From positions 253,336-317,335 of IMG/VR virus record IMGVR_UViG_3300009709_000001: a DNA stretch of 64,000 bases; one strand, given 5' to 3'. This stretch comes from a virus. Taxonomy: Duplodnaviria > Heunggongvirae > Uroviricota > Caudoviricetes. A program made the translations under genes and the position numbers. Under the pieces are notes generated by a model. That model ran no database searches. It was not told the origin of the DNA and was given only the letters and a program-made list of their open reading frames with translations. Of the stretch, positions 2,928-63,028 are shown piece by piece. The first letter of the stretch is position 1. Each line of letters starts with the position of its first letter.

Positions 2928-3061
2928 AAGGCCAGAATGCCGTTGACAACGTCTCGCGTTTCGTTGTAGAGTTTCAGCAAGGCAGCATCGCCCAGCTGTG
3001 CGAGATGGCGCTCGCTGTGCTGCGAGTGCTCGAGGAGGTATTCGGTGATGAGCTTGCGCAT
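2924..3061 (-). CDS. hypothetical protein (MRKLITEY...)
   Basis: Internal ATG of track ORF 2924-3205. Confidence 0.6.
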   Translation of the reverse strand: MRKLITEYLLEHSQHSERHLAQLGDAALLKLYNETRDVVNGILAL

Positions 3062-3063
3062 GG

Positions 3064-3240
3064 CTAGGCCTGCTTGATGAGGTTGATGAGTGCGTCCTGC
3101 GTGAACTGCCCGTACTGCTGGGCGAACGCGGGGTCCGTGCAGGCGTGCTTCATTGCGAGGGCCACCGCAGTGGCTTCCATGTGCGTTGCCCCGCTCGCCG
3201 TACACTGGGCAACGATTTTGTTGAAAGTGGCTTCGTCCAC
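3064..3240 (-). CDS. hypothetical protein (GTG start, 58 aa)
   Basis: AGGAG RBS; hand translation VDEATFNKIV...LIKQA. Confidence 0.65.
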   Translation of the reverse strand: MDEATFNKIVAQCTASGATHMEATAVALAMKHACTDPAFAQQYGQFTQDALINLIKQA

Positions 3241-3266
3241 AATGTGGCTCCTGTTACGATGCTTCT

Positions 3267-3315
3267 ATAATAGCACCACTTAGTGGGTGTGTCTACCTCT
3301 GTTACATCTTGTTAC
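3267..3315 (-). promoter_or_regulatory. sigma70 promoter with GTAACA box
   Basis: GTAACAAGATGTAACAG-agg-TAGACA-N17-TATTAT. Confidence 0.8.
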
Positions 3316-3556
3316 GCCTGCGCTGCAACCCATCCTCGTGCCGCTTGTTCATGCTGCGCATGGTGGCCCACGCCAATGCGAGGGCGTGCGGCTTGGGGAC
3401 ACGCCAGGTGCCATCCTCGTGAAGGACTTCATCCGCGTGTCCACCTCGGCAGGGGATGATGTAGCAGTCGTCGTCGAAATCCCACACCACTTTCACCTCG
3501 TCCGCGGCTTCCTGCTGCAGGGTGAGGGGCAAGCAGTAAACGCCTTCAATAAGCAT
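3302..3556 (-). CDS. hypothetical protein
   Basis: AAGGAG RBS, own promoter 3579-3623. Confidence 0.75.
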   Translation of the reverse strand: MLIEGVYCLPLTLQQEAADEVKVVWDFDDDCYIIPCRGGHADEVLHEDGTWRVPKPHALALAWATMRSMNKRHEDGLQRRRNKM

Positions 3557-3578
3557 GGGAACTCCTTAACATGCCTAC

Positions 3579-3623
3579 AGTTTAGCACCGCTATATATAC
3601 TGTCAACCGCTGTTACATCTTAC
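3579..3623 (-). promoter_or_regulatory. sigma70 promoter with GTAACA box
   Basis: GTAAGATGTAACAG-cgg-TTGACA-N16-TAAACT. Confidence 0.75.
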
Positions 3624-3790
3624 CCGCCTTGGGCCTCGTGATGTGTACTTTTGTAAAGCATTGTAAAGGAACGTAAAGCAGCAAAAAACGGTAGACAGCC
3701 CCTCGCGATTCTGATATAGTACATACATGGACAGCAAACAAGCAAACAACAAAGGCAAGCGCGCTGTTCATAGCGCTTACGCAACAAATC

Positions 3791-4700: not shown

Positions 4701-5165
4701 GTCGGTTTTCAACGCAAGAAGGGCACTCCAGGTGCCCTATTCTCACGAGTAGATTGTCGGCAGTGAATAAGACAGTTTGGTGTCTTAGGCCGAGTAATAT
4801 GTTATGCCGATCTACTTTGCGACGCTTGCAATGTTTCTATTCTTGAAAGATTGCAGTGGCACCAACCTGTGCACAGGTCTTACCCTCAGATCACAAATCA
4901 AACAGCTCCATTGTTTCGATTGTCCTCGTATGCGAGGCAGAGCCCATGATTAGACCTGGTTGTTCATCTAGGATAGCTACCTATGCGGCTACACTAGGCA
5001 TTGCGAGGCAGGATTAGCCGAAAAAGGTGGAATCTAAAGAGCTGTCTCGCGTTTGAAGGTGCAGGTGCAGGTGACAGGCTTGCGTCAGAACCTGTCGCAA
5101 ATTTCCAATTTTGATTTCCAAATCTGAATTGGAAACCTAAAAAGGAAAATTGGGCCTGTTAGTTG

Positions 5166-5390: not shown

Positions 5391-5613
5391 GGTTGCCCTT
5401 GACAACTTCGATGTCAGCGACGTTGGAATAGATCCAGCAGACAGCGCCGATGCATGCCAACGTGTTCGCAAGCGGAACCACACTCCAGAAAATGGTCCAG
5501 ATGATGTTTGCCACTGTGAGGCTGTCGCCTTTCTTAATTGCGAACATCCAAGCAATGGGAACCAGCACGGCGTACAGTGCAATGCACAGCAGGTATAATT
5601 CAATCGGGCCCAT
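5383..5613 (-). CDS. small membrane protein, PxxN family
   Basis: TM segments, VPLANT motif. Confidence 0.7.
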   Translation of the reverse strand: MGPIELYLLCIALYAVLVPIAWMFAIKKGDSLTVANIIWTIFWSVVPLANTLACIGAVCWIYSNVADIEVVKGNHD

Positions 5614-5658
5614 AGCAGTCCTTTCTTACTGCTATTGTACGCGCTGGGCCAAAGGCTG

Positions 5659-9695: not shown

Positions 9696-9907
9696 AGAGT
9701 CCTTTCATACATAACCAATATCCTGTACAGTTCGCATTCGAATTCTTCTACAGTGCGGAAGTTAGGAGAACACACTGCTTGCCATATTTCCATATAGACA
9801 TTTTCTGGAACTAGGTGACGAAATATGGCAAGATCTGTTCTAATAGAACATCCGGACCAGGCGGGATACTTCAGTTTGACGTGCAGGAGTTCTTCAGCGC
9901 TGATCAT
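9692..9907 (-). CDS. LKY-array paralog 23
   Basis: MISAEELLHVKLKY. Confidence 0.85.
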   Translation of the reverse strand: MISAEELLHVKLKYPAWSGCSIRTDLAIFRHLVPENVYMEIWQAVCSPNFRTVEEFECELYRILVMYERTL

Positions 9908-10035
9908 ATTCTTGTAGGGCTGCGTAGAGTTGGTTTAGATTCTATAGCTGCTGTGAAGATGACTTGGTAGTCATTCACTATAGGTTTACTGAGTTTATAC
10001 TTCAGTGTTATCAACAGTTTGTCTTCGCTGTTCAT
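9894..10035 (-). pseudogene. short, frameshifted LKY-array paralog 22
   Basis: MNSEDKLLITLKY...; C-terminal LYAALQEYD lies in another frame. Confidence 0.6.
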
Positions 10036-10279: not shown

Positions 10280-10508
10280 AGTCGGCTAGGTCAGCCATCA
10301 ATATGCACATGAACTCGAGTGTATCGTAGTAGTCATAAAACCTATTCCTAGTTTTTAGTTGGCCGTGAAGTGTGTATGCATAATCGATTAGGAACTCATC
10401 GGGTAACGACATCATGGACTTTGGATAACGATCGAACATGCCGAGTTGGAATCTCTTTTCGGGTAGGTTGTATTTTAACCTAATGAATAGTTCATCTTCG
10501 TTGTTCAT
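10263..10508 (-). CDS. LKY-array paralog 20
   Basis: MNNEDELFIRLKY. Confidence 0.85.
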   Translation of the reverse strand: MNNEDELFIRLKYNLPEKRFQLGMFDRYPKSMMSLPDEFLIDYAYTLHGQLKTRNRFYDYYDTLEFMCILMADLADYESRR

Positions 10509-10761
10509 GATTTGGCTCCAGTTCCATTAGTATATTCGATAATGCTTCAAGTGCTTCTTCGGGTTTATCGCTGTAGATTTGAAGTAGTTGAATTCCGGGT
10601 TCGCCTGTGCTGAAGGTGTATACTCTGAAGTTCTCGTGTGTGTAGTGACCGATATATTCGGCTTGTTCTTCGGTTACATAACACACAACTTTTCGTAAGA
10701 GGTTAGTTTTTATACCGATGCGGTACTTCAGCGTTAAGTAGAGCTTGTCTTCTGCATCCAT
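10492..10761 (-). CDS. LKY-array paralog 19
   Basis: MDAEDKLYLTLKY. Confidence 0.85.
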   Translation of the reverse strand: MDAEDKLYLTLKYRIGIKTNLLRKVVCYVTEEQAEYIGHYTHENFRVYTFSTGEPGIQLLQIYSDKPEEALEALSNILMELEPNHEQRR

Positions 10762-10982
10762 TCTAGTAAGTCTTTCTTTAGGTGGTACATGAAGTCTAAT
10801 GAGTGGTAGGCATGCCCGGGTCGACTGTTTAATCTAACAAAGGTACTGGTATCGATATATCCGTATTCGAGTAGGAACTCGATAGGTATTTCTCTTGAGT
10901 ACTCAACCCACTGCACATAGTCGGCAAAGTGTACCGGAAGTCTATACTTCAGCTGTAGGTAGGTTTCGTCTTGACTGTTCAT
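10734..10982 (-). CDS. LKY-array paralog 18
   Basis: MNSQDETYLQLKY. Confidence 0.85.
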   Translation of the reverse strand: MNSQDETYLQLKYRLPVHFADYVQWVEYSREIPIEFLLEYGYIDTSTFVRLNSRPGHAYHSLDFMYHLKKDLLEWMQKTSST

Positions 10983-11199
10983 ATCGCATTAGTTGGCTGA
11001 TAAAGTATTCGGTACTAATCTCTTTGTACTTCAGGTTTAACAACACATCGTTGAACATGAAATTATACTCGGCTAGAAAGTCAGGTGGCAGAGATTCGGC
11101 ATAGAGTTTTCTTGCTCTAACTTCTTGTGGTGTAGTCGGGTATGGAGGTGGCATTCCATACTTCAACACTACCATCGATTTGAGTTCAGCATCATCCAT
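10942..11199 (-). CDS. LKY-array paralog 17
   Basis: MDDAELKSMVVLKYG. Confidence 0.85.
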   Translation of the reverse strand: MDDAELKSMVVLKYGMPPPYPTTPQEVRARKLYAESLPPDFLAEYNFMFNDVLLNLKYKEISTEYFISQLMRYEQSRRNLPTAEV

Positions 11200-48859: not shown

Positions 48860-49098
48860 GCTTCAGCCTCTTCATCATCGGGAAGCTGTGCCAGCAGCGC
48901 GGCCCTGTCAGTACTCGTATCGACAATGATGCCTGCTCGCCGCTTGTTCACCGTGTCGACAGTGACGGGACGTACCTCCCACAGCGCACACGAACGCACG
49001 TTGCAGGCTTCCACCTGTTCGCGCCACGTGCCAGGTGCTGCGGAGTCATAAGTGCAATCCTTGCACTTCTCTTCGATTGCCTTCTTCAGCGATGCCAT
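48856..49098 (-). CDS. C4 zinc-binding protein
   Basis: KAIEEKCKDC...C....CALWEVRP; AAGGAG RBS. Confidence 0.75.
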   Translation of the reverse strand: MASLKKAIEEKCKDCTYDSAAPGTWREQVEACNVRSCALWEVRPVTVDTVNKRRAGIIVDTSTDRAALLAQLPDDEEAEA

Positions 49099-49167
49099 GT
49101 TGGCTCCTTGTTGCGCGATACCTACATTATATGAGATATCGCGCGAGTTGTCAAGCGGTAGTTGGGA

Positions 49168-49452
49168 TTACTTACCGACCTGGCCCTTGACTGTATTCGG
49201 ATCCTTGACGCCGACAGGCTCGTACAGATCGAAGCCGATCAGATAGACGGGGATGACCAGCGTCTCGCTAAAGATGATGGCGCAGATGATAGCGCCGGTG
49301 CTCATCTCATATTGGATATTCGGATTCATCTTCTCGTCCTTGTTCAGGAGGCCGTAGGTGTCGTAGGTGACACCGTTGATCTCCTTGGGTTTGGCACAGC
49401 CGGTCAGCAGGAGAGTGGCAGCCAGCAGGGTGGCCGTGAGCAGCTTCTTCAT
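49168..49452 (-). CDS. lipoprotein
   Basis: Signal peptide with lipobox LTGC. Confidence 0.85.
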   Translation of the reverse strand: MKKLLTATLLAATLLLTGCAKPKEINGVTYDTYGLLNKDEKMNPNIQYEMSTGAIICAIIFSETLVIPVYLIGFDLYEPVGVKDPNTVKGQVGK

Positions 49453-49949
49453 GATCGTTCCTTTCGAGTTAACAACACATATTCGTCGAGAAAGGGTTTC
49501 CCGACATCCTTTGACACATACGTTTCACCTTGCATTCCTTGCTCGGAATAATCGATGTTACGTATCGCGTCCCAACTAAAACCATATTTTCTGAGACCCC
49601 ATCGAAAGGTTCTCAACCAACCGTGGTCGGTATAAATCAACCCATGTTCGTCAATATCCCAATCATCCTTGGAGAACCATGCTGTCAGCTCGCCAAAGTC
49701 ATGACCAGAGGTCGGGACACGAAGTTCGTGAATTCGAATTCTTTTCAGTGGGCGGCCGGACCAATATCCCTGCCCATTACAACTTGTCTTAATGTCCACT
49801 AGCATTCGCTTATTGTAAGCGAATTCTTTGGCAAAGTCAAATGATATTTTTGCATAGAGAAAAGCCTGGAGAACATGCCCCCAGGCCCCACCGTTTAAAC
49901 TTACCGTTGCTGCAACCGACGAATCAGAAGCAGTCCCCCGATCATCCAA
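49449..49949 (-). CDS. hypothetical protein
   Basis: Long ORF, start uncertain. Confidence 0.6.
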   Translation of the reverse strand: MDDRGTASDSSVAATVSLNGGAWGHVLQAFLYAKISFDFAKEFAYNKRMLVDIKTSCNGQGYWSGRPLKRIRIHELRVPTSGHDFGELTAWFSKDDWDIDEHGLIYTDHGWLRTFRWGLRKYGFSWDAIRNIDYSEQGMQGETYVSKDVGKPFLDEYVLLTRKERS

Positions 49950-50365
49950 ACTACCCTTAGGTATTCTGTAGATCGATCTTCCGTTTTAAATAATCAAAAA
50001 TATATTGCATTACATCGGGCTCATCCCCGGAGTAAGTGGCCGAAGAAATCTTCTTCTTAGATTGGAGTAAGATGGATCACTTGGATAAAATCTCCATTTG
50101 GTTAGAGAAGGTATCGGGCGCCGCCCATCGGACAACCCAATCAAAACAAGTTAAAAAGTGTAAACTAAATCCATGATTGTTTAGCCTTGCCAGCCAGACG
50201 TGCCATATTCGGTCACGCCACAAACAGTGGGCAATGTCGTTCAAATTCGACACAGTACGGCTCAATGAAGCGAGGAACCTTCTTTCGAAGCATACTCGCA
50301 TTCCTACAAGCTTCATCAGGGGAGTTCTGCCACTAACAGATCTCGACTCCTGGCCGTTTCGTTCC

Positions 50366-50644
50366 TTATGAACTCGTCAGCTGTGTTACGGTGGTAACAA
50401 ATGTCACATCACCATCGGTAAAAATTTTCGGACTTTTACCGATAAACTCCAAAAGAAAATCATCCCATGTCCATCCAAGCTCGTTGAGCTGTTTATCAAC
50501 CTCTTCTGTAGTAACCGGATTAAATCCGAATTGATTATAGAAGACTTCGCATGCCTCCGAATAAGGCGCCCTCTTCAAGATCTTGAAGGTTTCGTCTTCG
50601 GGTGTTACGACATCGACAACAACGCGGTTTGGATTGAGTTTCAT
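50366..50644 (-). CDS. EEDTF..L(K/R)R family protein
   Basis: PEDETFKILKRAP...GWTWDDF. Confidence 0.75.
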   Translation of the reverse strand: MKLNPNRVVVDVVTPEDETFKILKRAPYSEACEVFYNQFGFNPVTTEEVDKQLNELGWTWDDFLLEFIGKSPKIFTDGDVTFVTTVTQLTSS

Positions 50645-50811
50645 TTCAAGACGTACTCTTTTTCAAAGGAGGTCCAGTCCCATCCATACATAGCAATGAT
50701 CTCTACAAAACATTCGAAACTAATCAATTCGTTGATCAAGAATTGGTAGACATAGACACATTTCTCCAATGGTTCTCTTCTCAACTTGTTGAATGTGTCT
50801 TCTTCAGTCAT
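50641..50811 (-). CDS. EEDTF..L(K/R)R family protein (not in track)
   Basis: MTEEDTFNKLRREP...YGWDWTSF. Confidence 0.7.
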   Translation of the reverse strand: MTEEDTFNKLRREPLEKCVYVYQFLINELISFECFVEIIAMYGWDWTSFEKEYVLK

Positions 50812-51179
50812 CACCAGCTCACCTTAATGCGTTCCGGCCTGCCATCTTGAATATAGAAATCTTTTACTTCTTGAACCGCACTTTCCGGAATTACAGCCGT
50901 AGCATACAGCCATGTACCATCTTCCGTACCGTCGAGCATTTCGGCTGTGGCGTGCCAGTTATATTCCGGTACCAAGTGTCCAGCCATCTTGCCCTTAGTG
51001 CCGTAGTTCTCAAGCTTGGTAACTCGACCAATGTTACCGGCACTAACCGACCGGCCTCCCATATAGACAAAATCACCAACCTTGACTCCGGGATTTACAT
51101 CACCATCCTCATAATAGACACGCTGGTCCATTTTAGGCATCTTCAATCGACCAGTCTTTGTTTTTGTGAAATATGGCAT
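50811..51179 (-). CDS. hypothetical protein
   Basis: GGAG RBS. Confidence 0.75.
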   Translation of the reverse strand: MPYFTKTKTGRLKMPKMDQRVYYEDGDVNPGVKVGDFVYMGGRSVSAGNIGRVTKLENYGTKGKMAGHLVPEYNWHATAEMLDGTEDGTWLYATAVIPESAVQEVKDFYIQDGRPERIKVSW

Positions 51180-51189
51180 CTCTACTCCG

Positions 51190-51683
51190 AATAGCTACGG
51201 GGGTGCCCCTCTCCAGAAGAACAAGTCTTCAGAATTTCAACCCGTCTTCAGCTTTACCTATATCCATTACGCTTACGCGAAGTAACTTAGGATATAGATG
51301 GAACATGGTTTTAGAGGCCATGTTGCTGTATTAGAATTTATCGTCCCTTCAGACTATCCACTCATCGCCGTTTCGAACGGGCGAACACTGAAGCAGTGGC
51401 TCTACACGGGCTTATGTGCTATTAACCCACTGGGCACGTTTTATGGGTAGGTGGAACAAGGAATTGATTGTCGAGATTACTCTCGGTCACCCAGAACACA
51501 CTGGGGCCTTGCCCTAAGATACCCGCACGGGATTTCTCCCCGGCCATAATGTTTATCGACATTTCTGTCTATCCGGAATTTAACCGGCCAAAGAACAAGT
51601 GTTAGCCTTCCACTAACATGCCCGCATAAGTATCATTAGATACCCTACGTTGTGCTTCTTGGGTGGGACACAACGATACCTTT
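51190..51683 (-). ncRNA. large (~500 nt) structured ncRNA, GOLLD/ROOL-like candidate
   Basis: ORF-free; minus-strand GNRA hairpins GACA-GAAA-TGTC, GGGA-GAAA-TCCC, CGAGA-GTAA-TCTCG, GTTAGT-GGAA-GGCTAAC and long stems. Confidence 0.7.
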
Positions 51684-52324
51684 TCAGGTAGTCTGATTCA
51701 ATGATGATAATCTCTTAAGTTCGGCATTGAGTTTTCTAGTTTCGGTTCTTTTTGCGATCGATTCGGGCGTTAAAGATTTACCTTGCCTGGATTTCTTATA
51801 TTTTTCTCTATATTCCTCGGATTGCCAGTTTTTCTTCGCTCGCTCACTTTGTTGATTTCTTCTCTCTTCACATTGTATTAAATGAATTGCAGAAGATCGG
51901 TAATTATCATCTTTCCATCTTTCCATCTTTCCAGTGCTCTGACACTAGCATCATTTTTCAGCTTTTCAGACTTCCAGGCTTCTGTTACAGATCGAGATTT
52001 CTTTATTTTTGTTTCGATTGTATCTTTTCTTCCCGATGTTCCGTCTCCTCCATCGGTTTTATTCATTAAAATTCCTGTTCCGAGATCTTTTCGCCCATAC
52101 CACCGAATATAGAATCTCTCCAGGGCCAGCGAGCCAATTTCGGTTAGTCCTGATTCGAGGATGACAATATTTCTTCTATCTGCGGGCAATTTTACTACAC
52201 GAGAACTTTTTTGATATGCTCGATTTCCAGAACCTTTGCCAATATAATAGGGTGTTCCTGATTTTGCAGTTATAGAATCCTTTTCGCGAAGATAAGCATA
52301 AACATAATAGTTGATTTTATTCAT
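51684..52324 (-). pseudogene. GIY-YIG-like homing endonuclease frameshifted by an 8-nt triplication
   Basis: YYVYAY...[11 protein letters not shown]; (TGGAAAGA)x3 at ~51908-51931; two copies restore the frame. Confidence 0.8.
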
Positions 52325-52621
52325 CTATTATTTATTTTCGCAAATTTTCACCAAAGCCTGGTTACGGTTGCTATGCATCATCCAAAGCGGGATCATGCAG
52401 GTGATGCCAAAGACGACACCGAGAACCACTGCACCAATGTACATCAGTCCTACCACCATGATTGTTCCTTTTCTTGTTCCTGCCGAACCTTCAGTTCTTT
52501 AGCATCCTTGAGCTCCTTGATACGTGCTTCATCACGCCGCTGCGCATCCCGAATAGAGATAGCAGCTTCGACACAGACGACGCCGATAAGGATAACAAAG
52601 ATGGTAAAGACGTAGATCATT

Positions 52622-52834
52622 TCACTCCTTGTCTCTTGCAGACCGTAGTTCGGCCAACTTCTTCTGCATACCTCGGAGGCTCGTGCCAGGCTGGTTGACT
52701 TCACACCACGATTCTTCGGGTGCGGACAGCTGGTCATTGTCCGAAGATGGGTTAGCTGTCCGCACGTGATGAATATACATTGCCACAGCGGCAACAACCA
52801 ACACAACGAACAGAACGAACAGAACTGCAATCAT
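52622..52834 (-). CDS. small membrane-anchored protein
   Basis: N-terminal TM, AGGAG RBS. Confidence 0.75.
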   Translation of the reverse strand: MIAVLFVLFVVLVVAAVAMYIHHVRTANPSSDNDQLSAPEESWCEVNQPGTSLRGMQKKLAELRSARDKE

Positions 52835-52893
52835 CGTTAACTCCTATCAACTGTGTTTATTATGCTTGCATCTTAAACGGCTGTCAACTGGCT

Positions 52894-53076
52894 TTAACGC
52901 ATATCGTCAGCCGTGACATATTTGGTACCATCGGGCATATCCCAGTCAGCCGGGAGATCTTTTGCCACATCGACAATCAGGTCGTGCAATGCATAACCTT
53001 CCACACTCAGTACATCCAGGTCACCCTCTTCTTCGAGGAGTGCCTGTGCCCTGGCGACAAGCTTAGACAGTTTCAC
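52894..53076 (-). CDS. hypothetical protein
   Basis: Operonic. Confidence 0.65.
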   Translation of the reverse strand: MKLSKLVARAQALLEEEGDLDVLSVEGYALHDLIVDVAKDLPADWDMPDGTKYVTADDMR

Positions 53077-53223
53077 CGGTGTCCACTGTAACGACGCAGA
53101 TTTCCTCGACTACGTCATAGACGTAGCCAGAAGCAAGAGCTTCGCGTGCTTCACGAGCAACGTATTCCGGAGTCTTGCTTTCGTCGTCGAGTTCAAGCTC
53201 AACGATAAGGCGAATTTTGTTCT

Positions 53224-53460
53224 TCATAAAATATCCTTTCCTGTGTGTCTTTTTAACCCATTAACACGATGATTGAATTCATCGTAATCCCATCCAGCTG
53301 CGGCAACCATTGCCTTTCTCTGAGCAACAATCTCCATATAATGATCGAAGCCATAGACCGTAGAACTGGACTTAATAACTCGATCAAGAAGAGAACTAAA
53401 CGGTTCTCGTTTCAGCGCAGTGAAGGTATCATCTTCGGTATACATATTAGTGGCACTCAC
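53224..53460 (-). CDS. EEDTF..L(K/R)R family protein
   Basis: TEDDTFTALKREP...GWDYDEF. Confidence 0.75.
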   Translation of the reverse strand: MSATNMYTEDDTFTALKREPFSSLLDRVIKSSSTVYGFDHYMEIVAQRKAMVAAAGWDYDEFNHRVNGLKRHTGKDIL

Positions 53461-53540
53461 GAATGAAAGAGGGGCTTTTCTTTACGGTCATATCATTCCA
53501 GTGCCTGTGCTTTGGTACTTATGGGCCACGCGCCCTGCCG

Positions 53541-54170
53541 TCACACCGGAGGGAACTCGAATTCAATCTTGTTCGCGTCGTTCATTTTCACCCAGAAGCG
53601 CACAGCCTTGGCTGGGACTTTATCCATTCTCGTTGCCCTATACGGGCACTGGCGCATGGTCGCCTGGGAACGCATGCCTTCCCAGTAGAAGGTGATGGAA
53701 TCAAAATCTTCCTGACCCTTACGGATATAGATGCGATCAACTTTCAGAATCGCGCCTGCCGGAATTGTTGCCGATACTGAGGTAGCACCGGTTTGCCATT
53801 TGCTCCTCACATCTCGCATATCCCCAGTGACCAGCATCAGCGAATGATTGCGTTCATCGTTGTAGAGATCGAATGTCCAATCAGCCGTAAGTTGCAGGCG
53901 ATCGCCGAGTTGGGGAATGTAGAGCTTCATGTCATACCTTTCTTCGCAAGGATTCCTATAATAGTTGTCGAGTTCCTCTATTGTCCAACTGTACGATTCT
54001 AAAAATTCTTTTTTCTTCGCATCATCCCCGAGAAGCTCTAAGAATTTTCCTCGATCCATCACGTTGACAACTTCTTCAAGCTCCGCAATTGAAATTCTTT
54101 TTAAGCAAAGGAATGTTTGAGTTTCGTCGCCTAACTTTTTATCAATCATATGGATGAGCCTTACACTCAA
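53541..54170 (-). CDS. EEDTF-family N-terminal unit fused to an MKLYIP domain (possibly two genes)
   Basis: DETQTFLCLKR...SWTIEEL, then MKLYIPQLGD. Confidence 0.6.
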   Translation of the reverse strand: MSVRLIHMIDKKLGDETQTFLCLKRISIAELEEVVNVMDRGKFLELLGDDAKKKEFLESYSWTIEELDNYYRNPCEERYDMKLYIPQLGDRLQLTADWTFDLYNDERNHSLMLVTGDMRDVRSKWQTGATSVSATIPAGAILKVDRIYIRKGQEDFDSITFYWEGMRSQATMRQCPYRATRMDKVPAKAVRFWVKMNDANKIEFEFPPV

Positions 54171-54234
54171 TCGTGACTCTTACTCGATCCGAGAGTCCAC
54201 CGGATATTAGCCGTTGTCATACCGGCAAGGTTCT

Positions 54235-54471
54235 TCAATGCCGTGACATCTTGCCAATTTCGGCGCGAATATGATCAAAAAATGCAATCTTGTTATGTTT
54301 GATTTCTTTCATCATGAGACCTTTGTCAATTCCATAATCACGGAGATAATCGTGTGTTATTCTTCGTAATGTGAGTTCGATATGATTATCATCGAGAATG
54401 GTATCGACAAAGGACCCGGCGCCCATGTCGTAGATAATACCCACGACACCTTCGTAATTTAATTTTTTCAT
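54235..54471 (-). CDS. hypothetical protein
   Basis: ATGA-coupled. Confidence 0.65.
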   Translation of the reverse strand: MKKLNYEGVVGIIYDMGAGSFVDTILDDNHIELTLRRITHDYLRDYGIDKGLMMKEIKHNKIAFFDHIRAEIGKMSRH

Positions 54472-54674
54472 GGCATTGTCCCGATTGCTCTGCAATATTC
54501 TTTGTAACCCCATCCGTGCTTGCGAAGAAATTCGCTCGATGCTACTGATGCAGGAACATCGCCACCACGACCTTCTAGGTATTCTATCGAATTATGATAT
54601 ACTGCCATAATCTTCATCATTTCAACTAGAGGAGGTCGCTTCAGTATTAGGTATAGTTTTTCTTCGTTATCCAT
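54468..54674 (-). CDS. EEDTF/LKY intermediate family protein
   Basis: MDNEEKLYLILKRPP...HGWGYKEY. Confidence 0.75.
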   Translation of the reverse strand: MDNEEKLYLILKRPPLVEMMKIMAVYHNSIEYLEGRGGDVPASVASSEFLRKHGWGYKEYCRAIGTMP

Positions 54675-54677
54675 TTC

Positions 54678-54869
54678 TCAGCGCTGCTCGAACACCTTGG
54701 TATCGACAAAAAGGATTTTCTTATCGGGCACAGCCATCACATGATAACCACGCTCGTGAATCTCCTTTGCACAAGTCCAGTAATCGTTGACATTACGGTA
54801 TGATTTGTGTGGATACATGGGTTCAAGTTCTTTGATTTGAATCCAATGCCAAATCTGAAATTCAACCAT
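54678..54869 (-). CDS. hypothetical protein
   Basis: AAGGA RBS. Confidence 0.7.
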   Translation of the reverse strand: MVEFQIWHWIQIKELEPMYPHKSYRNVNDYWTCAKEIHERGYHVMAVPDKKILFVDTKVFEQR

Positions 54870-54940
54870 GATTAATCCTTAAATATTGGGCGCACACTCA
54901 TTCGGCAATGTATGCGATGCAGATAAGCTGTTCCCTAAAA

Positions 54941-55237
54941 TGGTGCCCCGGGCCGGATTCGAACCGGCACGCTACTTTATTCGCTGCGGATTTTCTTACC
55001 ACTATAGCTTTCGCTACCATCTCTGTTTGTGGTCTGGGCTATACCTTAACCATTGCTTTCGCTTTAGGTTCCTGCCGTCTAGTCTCTACACGTTCAAGAA
55101 TATTTCTATTCAAGCTTCGCTCGGTATTAGCAGTTTAAAGCCTTCACCGAATTTGACAGGTTCTACTCCGAATGTTTCCACTCGGGCACTCAAATTTGTT
55201 CTAAGTCCGCTGAGTCTACCGGTTTCTCCACCGGGGC
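54941..55237 (-). tRNA. trnL: tRNA-Leu(UAA) interrupted by a group I intron; exons 55203-55237 and 54941-54994
   Basis: Spliced 89-nt cloverleaf GCCCCGG..GCGGA-CUU|AAAA-UCCGC, long variable arm, GUUCGAAUC, encoded CCA. Confidence 0.93.
54995..55202 (-). mobile_element. 208-nt group I (IC3-type) self-splicing intron, no ORF
   Basis: 5' exon ends in U, terminal G; P UCAAAUUCGGUGAA, Q AAUACCGAGC, R GUGUAGAGACUAGACGG, S AAGGUAUAGCCC. Confidence 0.92.
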
Positions 55238-55326
55238 ATTATTTAATGATTATTGATCCGCGCTTCCTCGGGGCATTCACCTTAACGTTCAATCTCCCCA
55301 ATTCGCTTATTACTTACCGTTAATCG

Positions 55327-55569
55327 TTACAAGATGATTTCCCTAAGCGAGAGATCAGTCTCATAAGGTATTTTCTTGTCATCGAAGGTTACAAGGCATG
55401 CCACATTTTCTGAAAATGCCTTTTTCTCTTTTTCCAGCATCCGGGCACCTTCGGCAAGACTATAGAATCGATAAGACTTATTTTGATCTCTAGAGAAAAG
55501 GCGAGAATCATGGAACATCATCCAGGATTCTGTTATACCATCAAAGATTCCATATGTCTTCGTTGTCAT
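55327..55569 (-). CDS. hypothetical protein
   Basis: Clean ORF. Confidence 0.7.
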   Translation of the reverse strand: MTTKTYGIFDGITESWMMFHDSRLFSRDQNKSYRFYSLAEGARMLEKEKKAFSENVACLVTFDDKKIPYETDLSLREIIL

Positions 55570-62953: not shown

Positions 62954-63028
62954 TGGTGGGCGGCCCGGGACTCGAACCCGGATTGAACGATTATGAGTCG
63001 CATATTCTAACCTTTAAATTAACCGCCC
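62954..63028 (-). tRNA. tRNA with CAU anticodon (Ile2 or Met; C4-G69 favours Ile2)
   Basis: GGGCGGT...GCGA-CTCATAA-TCGT...CCGGG-TTCGAGT-CCCGG-GCCGCCC-ACCA. Confidence 0.9.

Follow-up and report, generated by a model that had tools for sequence, protein, structure and literature searches.

A structured, abundant non-coding RNA of T4-like jumbo phages with a conserved 5' domain and variable 3' parts

We describe a new family of phage non-coding RNA that is genuine, structured, abundant and conserved. In the phage analysed here, the minus strand from 51693 to ~51190 of the window (the whole stretch of 64,000 nucleotides, bases 253336-317335 of a 385-kb IMG/VR jumbo-phage genome with direct terminal repeats) probably encodes a structured non-coding RNA that is stable and highly expressed, and which belongs to a T4-like jumbo-phage family outside Rfam 15 and for which action in trans is the most likely mode. 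The new family rests on three supports, namely compensatory base changes, high RNA abundance in nature and an invariant core of 83 nt. In this phage the conserved 5' domain of ~170 nt appears to carry a structured 3' extension of ~330 nt and, judging from the sequences compared, the RNA is a conserved head with exchangeable tails; the minimal ~170-nt form of one relative (L090) and the extended forms of others offer a natural dissection on which studies of structure and function can build.

Results

The locus sits in a run of small minus-strand genes, in a small-gene region close to the phage tRNA genes, with an ORF pair upstream (51878-52324 and 51684-51926) and a 122-aa ORF downstream (Table 1). 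An earlier note on this DNA had described an ornate non-coding RNA of ~500 nt in an ORF-free intergenic region, and such a region is indeed found between the stop of the endonuclease ORF (51684) and the ATG of the 122-aa ORF (51179), the ORFs inside it all having 53 aa or fewer. The 122-aa protein family has no match in Pfam, PHROG or NCBIfam; among the neighbours of its members (L002 3270-4369; L097, L100) are an RNA-ligase-like gene in one jumbo phage and YqeY-like and NMNAT/NUDIX genes in others. ARAGORN called no tRNA or tmRNA in the region, its sole call being tRNA-Met at 62954-63028. A tRNA-Leu(UAA) gene interrupted by a group I intron lies 3.3 kb upstream of the RNA; in the relative L090 the tRNA-Leu(UAA) is uninterrupted (3226-3311) and lies 6.5 kb upstream of the RNA.

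Table 1. Coordinates of the RNA, its hairpins and the neighbouring features in the window.
Feature	Position	Strand	Remarks
tRNA-Leu group I intron	55014-55212	-	RF00028 43.1 bits, E 1e-9; gathering score of 50 not reached
Broken free-standing homing-endonuclease gene	51684-52324	-	GIY-YIG-like N-domain, then NUMOD3-like repeats
Conserved 5' domain, seven hairpins	51525-51693	-	R2 homologues, covariation, RNAalifold
H0	51690-87 / 51680-77	-	Loop holds endonuclease-gene stop
H1	51675-69 / 51654-48	-	Conserved 14-nt loop UCCCACCCAAGAAG
H2	51644-39 / 51634-29	-	Hairpin of R2 model
H3	51617-12 / 51606-01	-	GGAA loop
H4	51587-84 / 51576-73	-	7-nt loop
H5	51569-66 / 51561-58	-	Hairpin of R2 model
H6	51540-37 / 51532-29	-	GAAA loop
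Invariant core, 83 nt	51547-51629	-	3' strand of H2 to junction after H5
X2 RNA contig, 458 nt	51208-51665	not given by contig	100% identical, mean word depth 116
3' extension, ~330 nt	51190-51524	-	Same X2 RNA contig as 5' domain
Parts of 3' extension	sub-domain 51524-51445; block 51433-51336	-	Plus hairpins CAUGG/CCAUG and CUAUAUCC/GGAUAUAG
CGUUGUG / CACAACG	51675 / 51654	-	Stem of the earlier note, confirmed
GUAUC / GAUAC	51643 / 51634	-	Stem of the earlier note, confirmed
GUUAGUGGAAGGCUAAC	51617	-	Hairpin of the earlier note, confirmed
GACAGAAAUGUC	51569	-	Hairpin of the earlier note, confirmed
GGGAGAAAUCCC	51540	-	Hairpin of the earlier note, confirmed
CGAGAGUAAUCUCG	51485	-	Hairpin of the earlier note, confirmed
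CCACU / AGUGG	51399 / 51362	-	Stem of the earlier note, confirmed
CAUGG / CCAUG	51322 / 51308	-	Stem of the earlier note, confirmed
CUAUAUCC / GGAUAUAG	51297 / 51265	-	Stem of the earlier note, confirmed
122-aa gene	50811-51179	-	Directly 3' of RNA; Shine-Dalgarno GGAG 51188-51185 after RNA

The proposal of an RNA had been made to depend on the existence of a transcript and on covariation among homologues. The transcript is present as an abundant RNA contig of a moss metatranscriptome (run X2), in which words of the region occur: it is ~20 times deeper than the contigs flanking it (depth 5.4 for 50299-50984 and 6.6 for 51707-52084), bearing in mind that metatranscriptome contigs cannot give strand, true ends or true level, and that an unstructured stretch at 49996-50246 also reaches a depth of 47. 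Since X2 depth varies from 0 to 116 across the stretch, carry-over of DNA is unlikely. No joint skipping the region was found among the X2 RNA contigs mapped on 49000-55500. As no promoter or terminator of the RNA's own is recognisable, the RNA is probably cut from a longer polycistronic transcript and would then outlive the mRNA.

The second abundant X2 contig, at 49996-50246 (depth 46.7), has an unremarkable fold. On the minus strand, 50077-50386 has a DNA-level match in L090, in a gap of 697 nt free of genes (10369-11066), and a 79-aa ORF at 50077-50316 may be non-coding, because the lengths of the X3 relative's indels at 50233-50294 are not multiples of three. A weak Hammerhead_3 match on the same strand (50351-50394; 19 bits, E 0.23) is probably due to chance.

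Folding energy provides moderate evidence for structure, which alone would not settle the question. Against dinucleotide shuffles the folding z-score is -3.58 for the minus and -1.57 for the plus strand; after GC correction the energy lies only 1.4 SD below that of the phage's own genome (-1.4 SD, top 8%), and at least three GNRA hairpins per 500 nt correspond to the top 1.2% of genome windows. The minus strand is taken as the RNA strand because of its G-U pairs, its GNRA loops and a strand asymmetry in folding energy of 18 kcal/mol. All stems listed in the earlier note were recovered on that strand by a motif check, and the sequence reported as repeated, ACUUGUUCUU, does occur twice (51600 and 51226). 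When the sequence is folded singly, a closing stem of ~33 bp is obtained and the two ends of the X2 RNA contig face each other in the fold. Processing by RNase III from this closing stem was considered and dropped, given that the same bases form H0 and H1 in all members and that contigs cannot show ends.

Three homologues were found in other jumbo-phage contigs (L090, L092 and L095). The first, a 326-kb JGI contig, was reached through a 77%-identical homologue (P0016) of the 122-aa protein, and a single-sequence covariance model of the core matches it at 9846-9987 (E 2.5e-15), directly upstream of P0016. A pattern combining the strings that this phage and L090 have in common without change led to IMGVR_UViG_3300045971_000577, a 369-kb record with terminal repeats that contains the loci L092 and L093, while L095, an ENA contig, was reached through a homologue of a syntenic 94-aa protein, its RNA sitting in a gene-free gap of 953 nt. 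The model R2, which spans 51693-51525 with hairpins H0-H6 and to which the four sequences align at 54-225 bits, matches L092 (G006) with 83 bits (E 9e-24), L090 with 77 bits (5e-22) and L095 with 54 bits (8e-15). Contigs of close relatives (SRR29660192 and ERZ27252311) are known from gene tables alone; in the tables of such relatives no gene is called over the 533 nt that precede the 56-aa gene of an ENA contig, nor over the 372 nt that precede the 122-aa gene of a Logan contig.

In the alignment, which has only four distinct sequences and favours the structure of the model, to which it was fitted, 98.4% of 129 cells hold standard pairs, and 26 of the 35 pairs are changed on both sides (18/35 in a three-sequence version). 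None of 500 shuffles reached any of five measures, and only 1-6 double-changed pairs were left when the 3' partners were slid by 1-3 columns, so that chance is an unlikely explanation of the covariation. RNAalifold independently predicts the same hairpins, and adds invariant extensions around H3 (GGGCA/UGUUC) and H4. The CGUUGUG/CACAACG stem of H1 is found in the relatives as GUCCCG/CGGGAC, CGUCCUG/CAGGAUG and AUCUGCG/CGUAGAU with the same 14-nt loop kept; GUUAGU/GCUAAC of H3 becomes GGUAGU/GCUACC and GACGAU/GUCGUC; and GACA/UGUC of H5 becomes GUCC/GGAC, UACC/GGUA and GACU/AGUC. Several loops and junctions are near-invariant, that is CCACCCAAG in L1, UGCGGG, GUGGAA, GUUCUUUG, GGUUA..UCC and GAxAAACA. 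We regard this comparative evidence for structure as decisive. A candidate pseudoknot between AAGAA of L1 and UUCUU of a junction was dropped, being without compensatory support and not compensated in L095.

The covariation on which the earlier note had made its case depend is thus present, and five of its stems (CGUUGUG/CACAACG, GUAUC/GAUAC, GUUAGU/GCUAAC, GACA/UGUC and GGGA/UCCC) are kept by compensatory changes within the 5' domain. A sixth, CCACU/AGUGG, has its counterpart UCCAU/AUGGA in one relative, and the others (CGAGA-GUAA-UCUCG, CAUGG/CCAUG and CUAUAUCC/GGAUAUAG) lie in the lineage-specific part, without comparative support. As for the extent of ~500 nt, the conserved unit is 51693-51525 alone, since the remaining two thirds, on the 3' side, differ among relatives and are missing from one; the 5' edge lies ~10 nt further upstream than had been proposed, H0 including the stop codon with which the upstream gene ends.

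Within the 5' domain, a syntenic 26-kb contig (X3) matches the 83-nt core at 100% identity and shows roughly 8-16% differences in the alignable part of its coding flanks; a further contig (X5) is identical over 51547-51607. The sharp edges of this identity could also have been caused by mosaic recombination. The sampled words of the core are listed in 10 runs of 6 studies, four of which runs are covered by the contig alignment. Of the four words sampled from the core, half occur in two further runs (X10 and X12, RNA libraries from other habitats), which is no evidence of habitat or expression.

Further searches returned no homologue. By blastn, no match to the region was found in 50,697 phage records, and neither blastn nor nhmmer found the RNA in 80 loci around relatives of the endonuclease; no paralogue was found in the phage's own genome. 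Exact 22- and 25-mers of the core gave no homologue in viral, genome and metagenome contigs, nor did a degenerate core pattern search. The neighbouring 92-aa and 209-aa proteins led to no RNA homologue, and the AAA protease led only to phages at 42% identity, all without the RNA. Model R2 gave no match in 45 other phage records, and around the 122-aa gene's nine distant homologues it likewise found nothing over 10 kb. Such null results are weak evidence, as the collections may omit records very near this genome. Distant jumbo phages carrying the 122-aa gene family lack the RNA, and the family, known so far from a narrow clade, appears to be confined to that narrow clade of T4-like jumbo phages.

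Outside the 5' domain the members diverge. A block of ~100 nt (51433-51336) aligns to L092, where CCACU/AGUGG corresponds to UCCAU/AUGGA and GUCU-GAAG-GGAC to AACC-GAAG-GGUU; L095 has nothing similar to the 3' extension and carries a different one; L090 is without it, its 122-aa gene beginning 14 nt after the 5' domain in an intergenic gap of 186 nt. These differences could also be read as the sign of two or more RNAs, the ~170-nt 5' domain being the whole functional RNA and the 3' ~330 nt either a separate, lineage-specific small RNA or a structured spacer or UTR assembled together with it. We hold this for possible, if rather unlikely: the 5' domain stands alone in the gap of L090, the 3' parts have only ~100 nt in common between this phage and L092 and another block of ~350 nt between L092 and L095, and the X3 and X5 relatives align at 80% identity or above over the 83-nt core only, but a single RNA contig runs without a break through both, nothing resembling a promoter or terminator separates the 5' domain from the 3' extension, and from the core to the next gene X3 has 351 letters against 357 nt here (51546 to ~51190).

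The ~350-nt block common to L092 (~4714-5051, minus strand) and L095 (~3364-3697, plus strand) is non-coding, 70% identical and absent here; in L092 it contains repeated UUAUAGAUAA boxes followed by an intrinsic terminator (~4640-4615), and in both contigs it may represent further small RNA genes. Directly upstream of the RNA the same two contigs carry an element of ~116 nt (5510-5624, minus strand, in L092 and 2978-3091, plus strand, in L095; 72% identity) in which the hairpin CCGG-UUCGAGA-CCGG is T-arm-like and, in L095, the closing stem is acceptor-like. This element, uncalled by ARAGORN and Rfam and absent from this phage and L090, may be an unconventional tRNA-like gene.

The position of the RNA directly upstream of the 122-aa gene here, and 14 nt upstream of it in L090, is consistent with a cis-acting leader that controls translation or read-through of the next gene, the abundant species then being a terminated or processed leader. 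The ~20-fold excess of the RNA over the contig of the downstream gene agrees with this, as does the single-sequence fold, which pairs the 3' flank containing the Shine-Dalgarno sequence with the 5' flank. That pairing, however, competes with the conserved H0 and H1, no terminator was found, and the downstream gene varies among relatives: this phage and L090 have the 122-aa gene there, L095 has one of 54 aa, and the X3 and ENA relatives probably have the 57-aa gene; moreover, no such RNA lies within 10 kb of, or directly before, the genes of 122-aa protein homologues at 38-51% identity. A leader function is therefore unlikely in our judgement.

On its 5' side the RNA adjoins the endonuclease gene, whose stop codon UGA (51686-51684) falls in the loop of H0. 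This gene matches PHROG 15526 at 1e-18 and, weakly, PHROG 314 (homing endonuclease); its family, widespread among phages, counts 393 relatives in IMG/VR, of which 20 were measured at 172-277 aa, and a Pfam scan of 18 relatives found NUMOD3 in 7 and the I-TevI DNA-binding domain in 1. The N-domain was given no name by Pfam, NCBIfam and PDB sequence searches, and is read as GIY-YIG-like because of the invariant Y7, Y9, Y26-Y27-I28-G29, R35, E69 and N88. A tandem triplication of an 8-nt unit, (GGAAAGAT)x3 at 51932-51909, splits the gene into the upstream ORF pair; with two GGAAAGAT copies it would form a single ORF of 210 aa with the same stop, and an RNA contig of the library has the same sequence there. 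The gene is absent beside the RNA in L090, L092 and L095, and its 90% cluster contains this phage only. As relatives have the RNA without the endonuclease, we consider the gene an incidental selfish insertion, which would have arrived later at the 5' edge of a conserved RNA gene and is now broken.

An adjacent homing-endonuclease gene, together with many GNRA hairpins and a real group I intron in the same window, could also suggest that the RNA is a group I intron of that gene, whether complete, remnant or permuted, the more so as there are R- and S-like strings, CAGACUA (51694-51688) and UAGUCUG (near 51352), which are exact reverse complements of each other and could pair. The 5' strand of such a pairing falls within the endonuclease ORF and beyond the abundant contig, L092 and L095 do not share its first bases, and no P3 partner was found. 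As a whole, this reading is very improbable. The hairpins of the conserved fold follow one another in a row, with no P3/P7 topology. RF00028 gives nothing here at E<=10 nor in G006, as against 43.1 bits (E 1e-9) for the nearby tRNA-Leu intron, by which the sensitivity of the covariance model is demonstrated in the same phage. Furthermore, no gene is interrupted, tightly packed small ORFs reaching the endonuclease start and the flanking ORFs being complete and unrelated; in relatives the 122-aa protein is full length by itself, no spliced joint is seen in the RNA contigs, and the RNA is kept in relatives that have no endonuclease; nor was any sign of a permuted group I intron found.

With Rfam 15, the whole window at gathering score yields tRNA-Met alone, the GOLLD, ROOL and OLE models giving no match, and at E<=10 only chance-level matches are obtained on 2.5 kb and on the 571-nt region. 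The homologues are likewise without a match to any known family. The weak matches to pemK (E 1.2), ALIL and WT1-AS were put down to chance. The absence of RNase P, tmRNA and group I/II signatures reported in the earlier note agrees with the lack of any Rfam 15 match in the region, but GOLLD, its best guess, is contradicted: at the level of covariance models we reject membership in GOLLD, ROOL, OLE, RNase P, tmRNA and group I/II alike. A divergent member of GOLLD or ROOL would share the phage origin, the ornate fold with GNRA loops and the location a few kb from tRNA genes, and yet in four family members no covariance model matched at any threshold tried, and the conserved unit of ~170 nt is far smaller than GOLLD and ROOL; we find this reading extremely unlikely. 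The alternative that the earlier note had left open, a new large RNA class, stands in substance, the RNA being transcribed, structured and of a family absent from Rfam 15, with a conserved unit of ~170 nt and not 500. Seven hairpins kept by compensatory changes, conserved loops and junctions and four members characterise the new family.

Discussion

Few large structured RNAs of unknown function exist, and their study has more than once opened up new biochemistry. For the RNA presented here, action in trans would imply that the invariant unpaired segments are offered to a conserved partner, possibly a protein of the host or the phage, or else an RNA connected with tRNAs and RNA repair, while the variable hairpins and the 3' modules may serve as scaffold. 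No partner of the RNA was identified. Antisense action on the phage genome was discarded, since no target stands out and the number of complementary 12-mers (28 against ~23 expected) is at chance level; a CsrA sponge acting through GGA motifs was likewise set aside, only three GGA being seen by eye in the 5' domain. The tRNA genes, the tRNA-like element and the homing endonuclease nearby link the RNA to the tRNA-centred arms race between phage and host.

A more specific proposal places the RNA as a new functional class in the tRNA and anti-defence sphere, either as a decoy built on the H4 arm or as an RNA-only assembly of the kind formed by GOLLD and ROOL. As a decoy, the invariant H4 arm and the junctions next to it would capture either a nuclease of the host that targets tRNA or an enzyme that handles tRNA, the 7-nt loop of H4 (UUAGGAU or UUAAAUU) being shaped like an anticodon loop; as an assembly, the RNA would be built on its GNRA loops and on a receptor-like CCUAAG/AAUGG element at 51291-51264. 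We give either form little credence at present, and retain a structured RNA that probably acts in trans as the preferred reading.

Among known systems, the group I introns of phages that carry homing-endonuclease genes, of the T4 td, nrdB and nrdD type, resemble the locus in that a structured RNA with GNRA loops adjoins a GIY-YIG-type endonuclease gene in a T4-like phage. In contrast to them, the new RNA interrupts no gene, has no RF00028 match and is kept without the endonuclease in relatives. The tRNA cluster of T4 also encodes stable RNAs, species 1 and 2, that is RNA C and D, of about 120-140 nt. Likened by description, these too are stable non-coding RNAs of a T4-like phage, near tRNA genes and with a GIY-YIG-type gene adjoining; compared with the T4 cluster, the RNA of L092 and L095 follows a tRNA-like element. 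SegB is a GIY-YIG endonuclease encoded in the T4 tRNA gene cluster, and the place of segB among the T4 tRNA genes parallels that of the endonuclease gene beside the new RNA (PMC2330249), although the latter gene, unlike segB, is broken and specific to this phage. GOLLD, ROOL and OLE form RNA-only assemblies, GOLLD and ROOL being homo-oligomers by cryo-EM (PMC12286853). Like GOLLD and ROOL, the new RNA is phage-encoded, has multiple hairpins and GNRA loops, lies in the neighbourhood of tRNA genes and is abundant; unlike them, it has no Rfam match and is so far found in four jumbo-phage contigs and their near-identical relatives.
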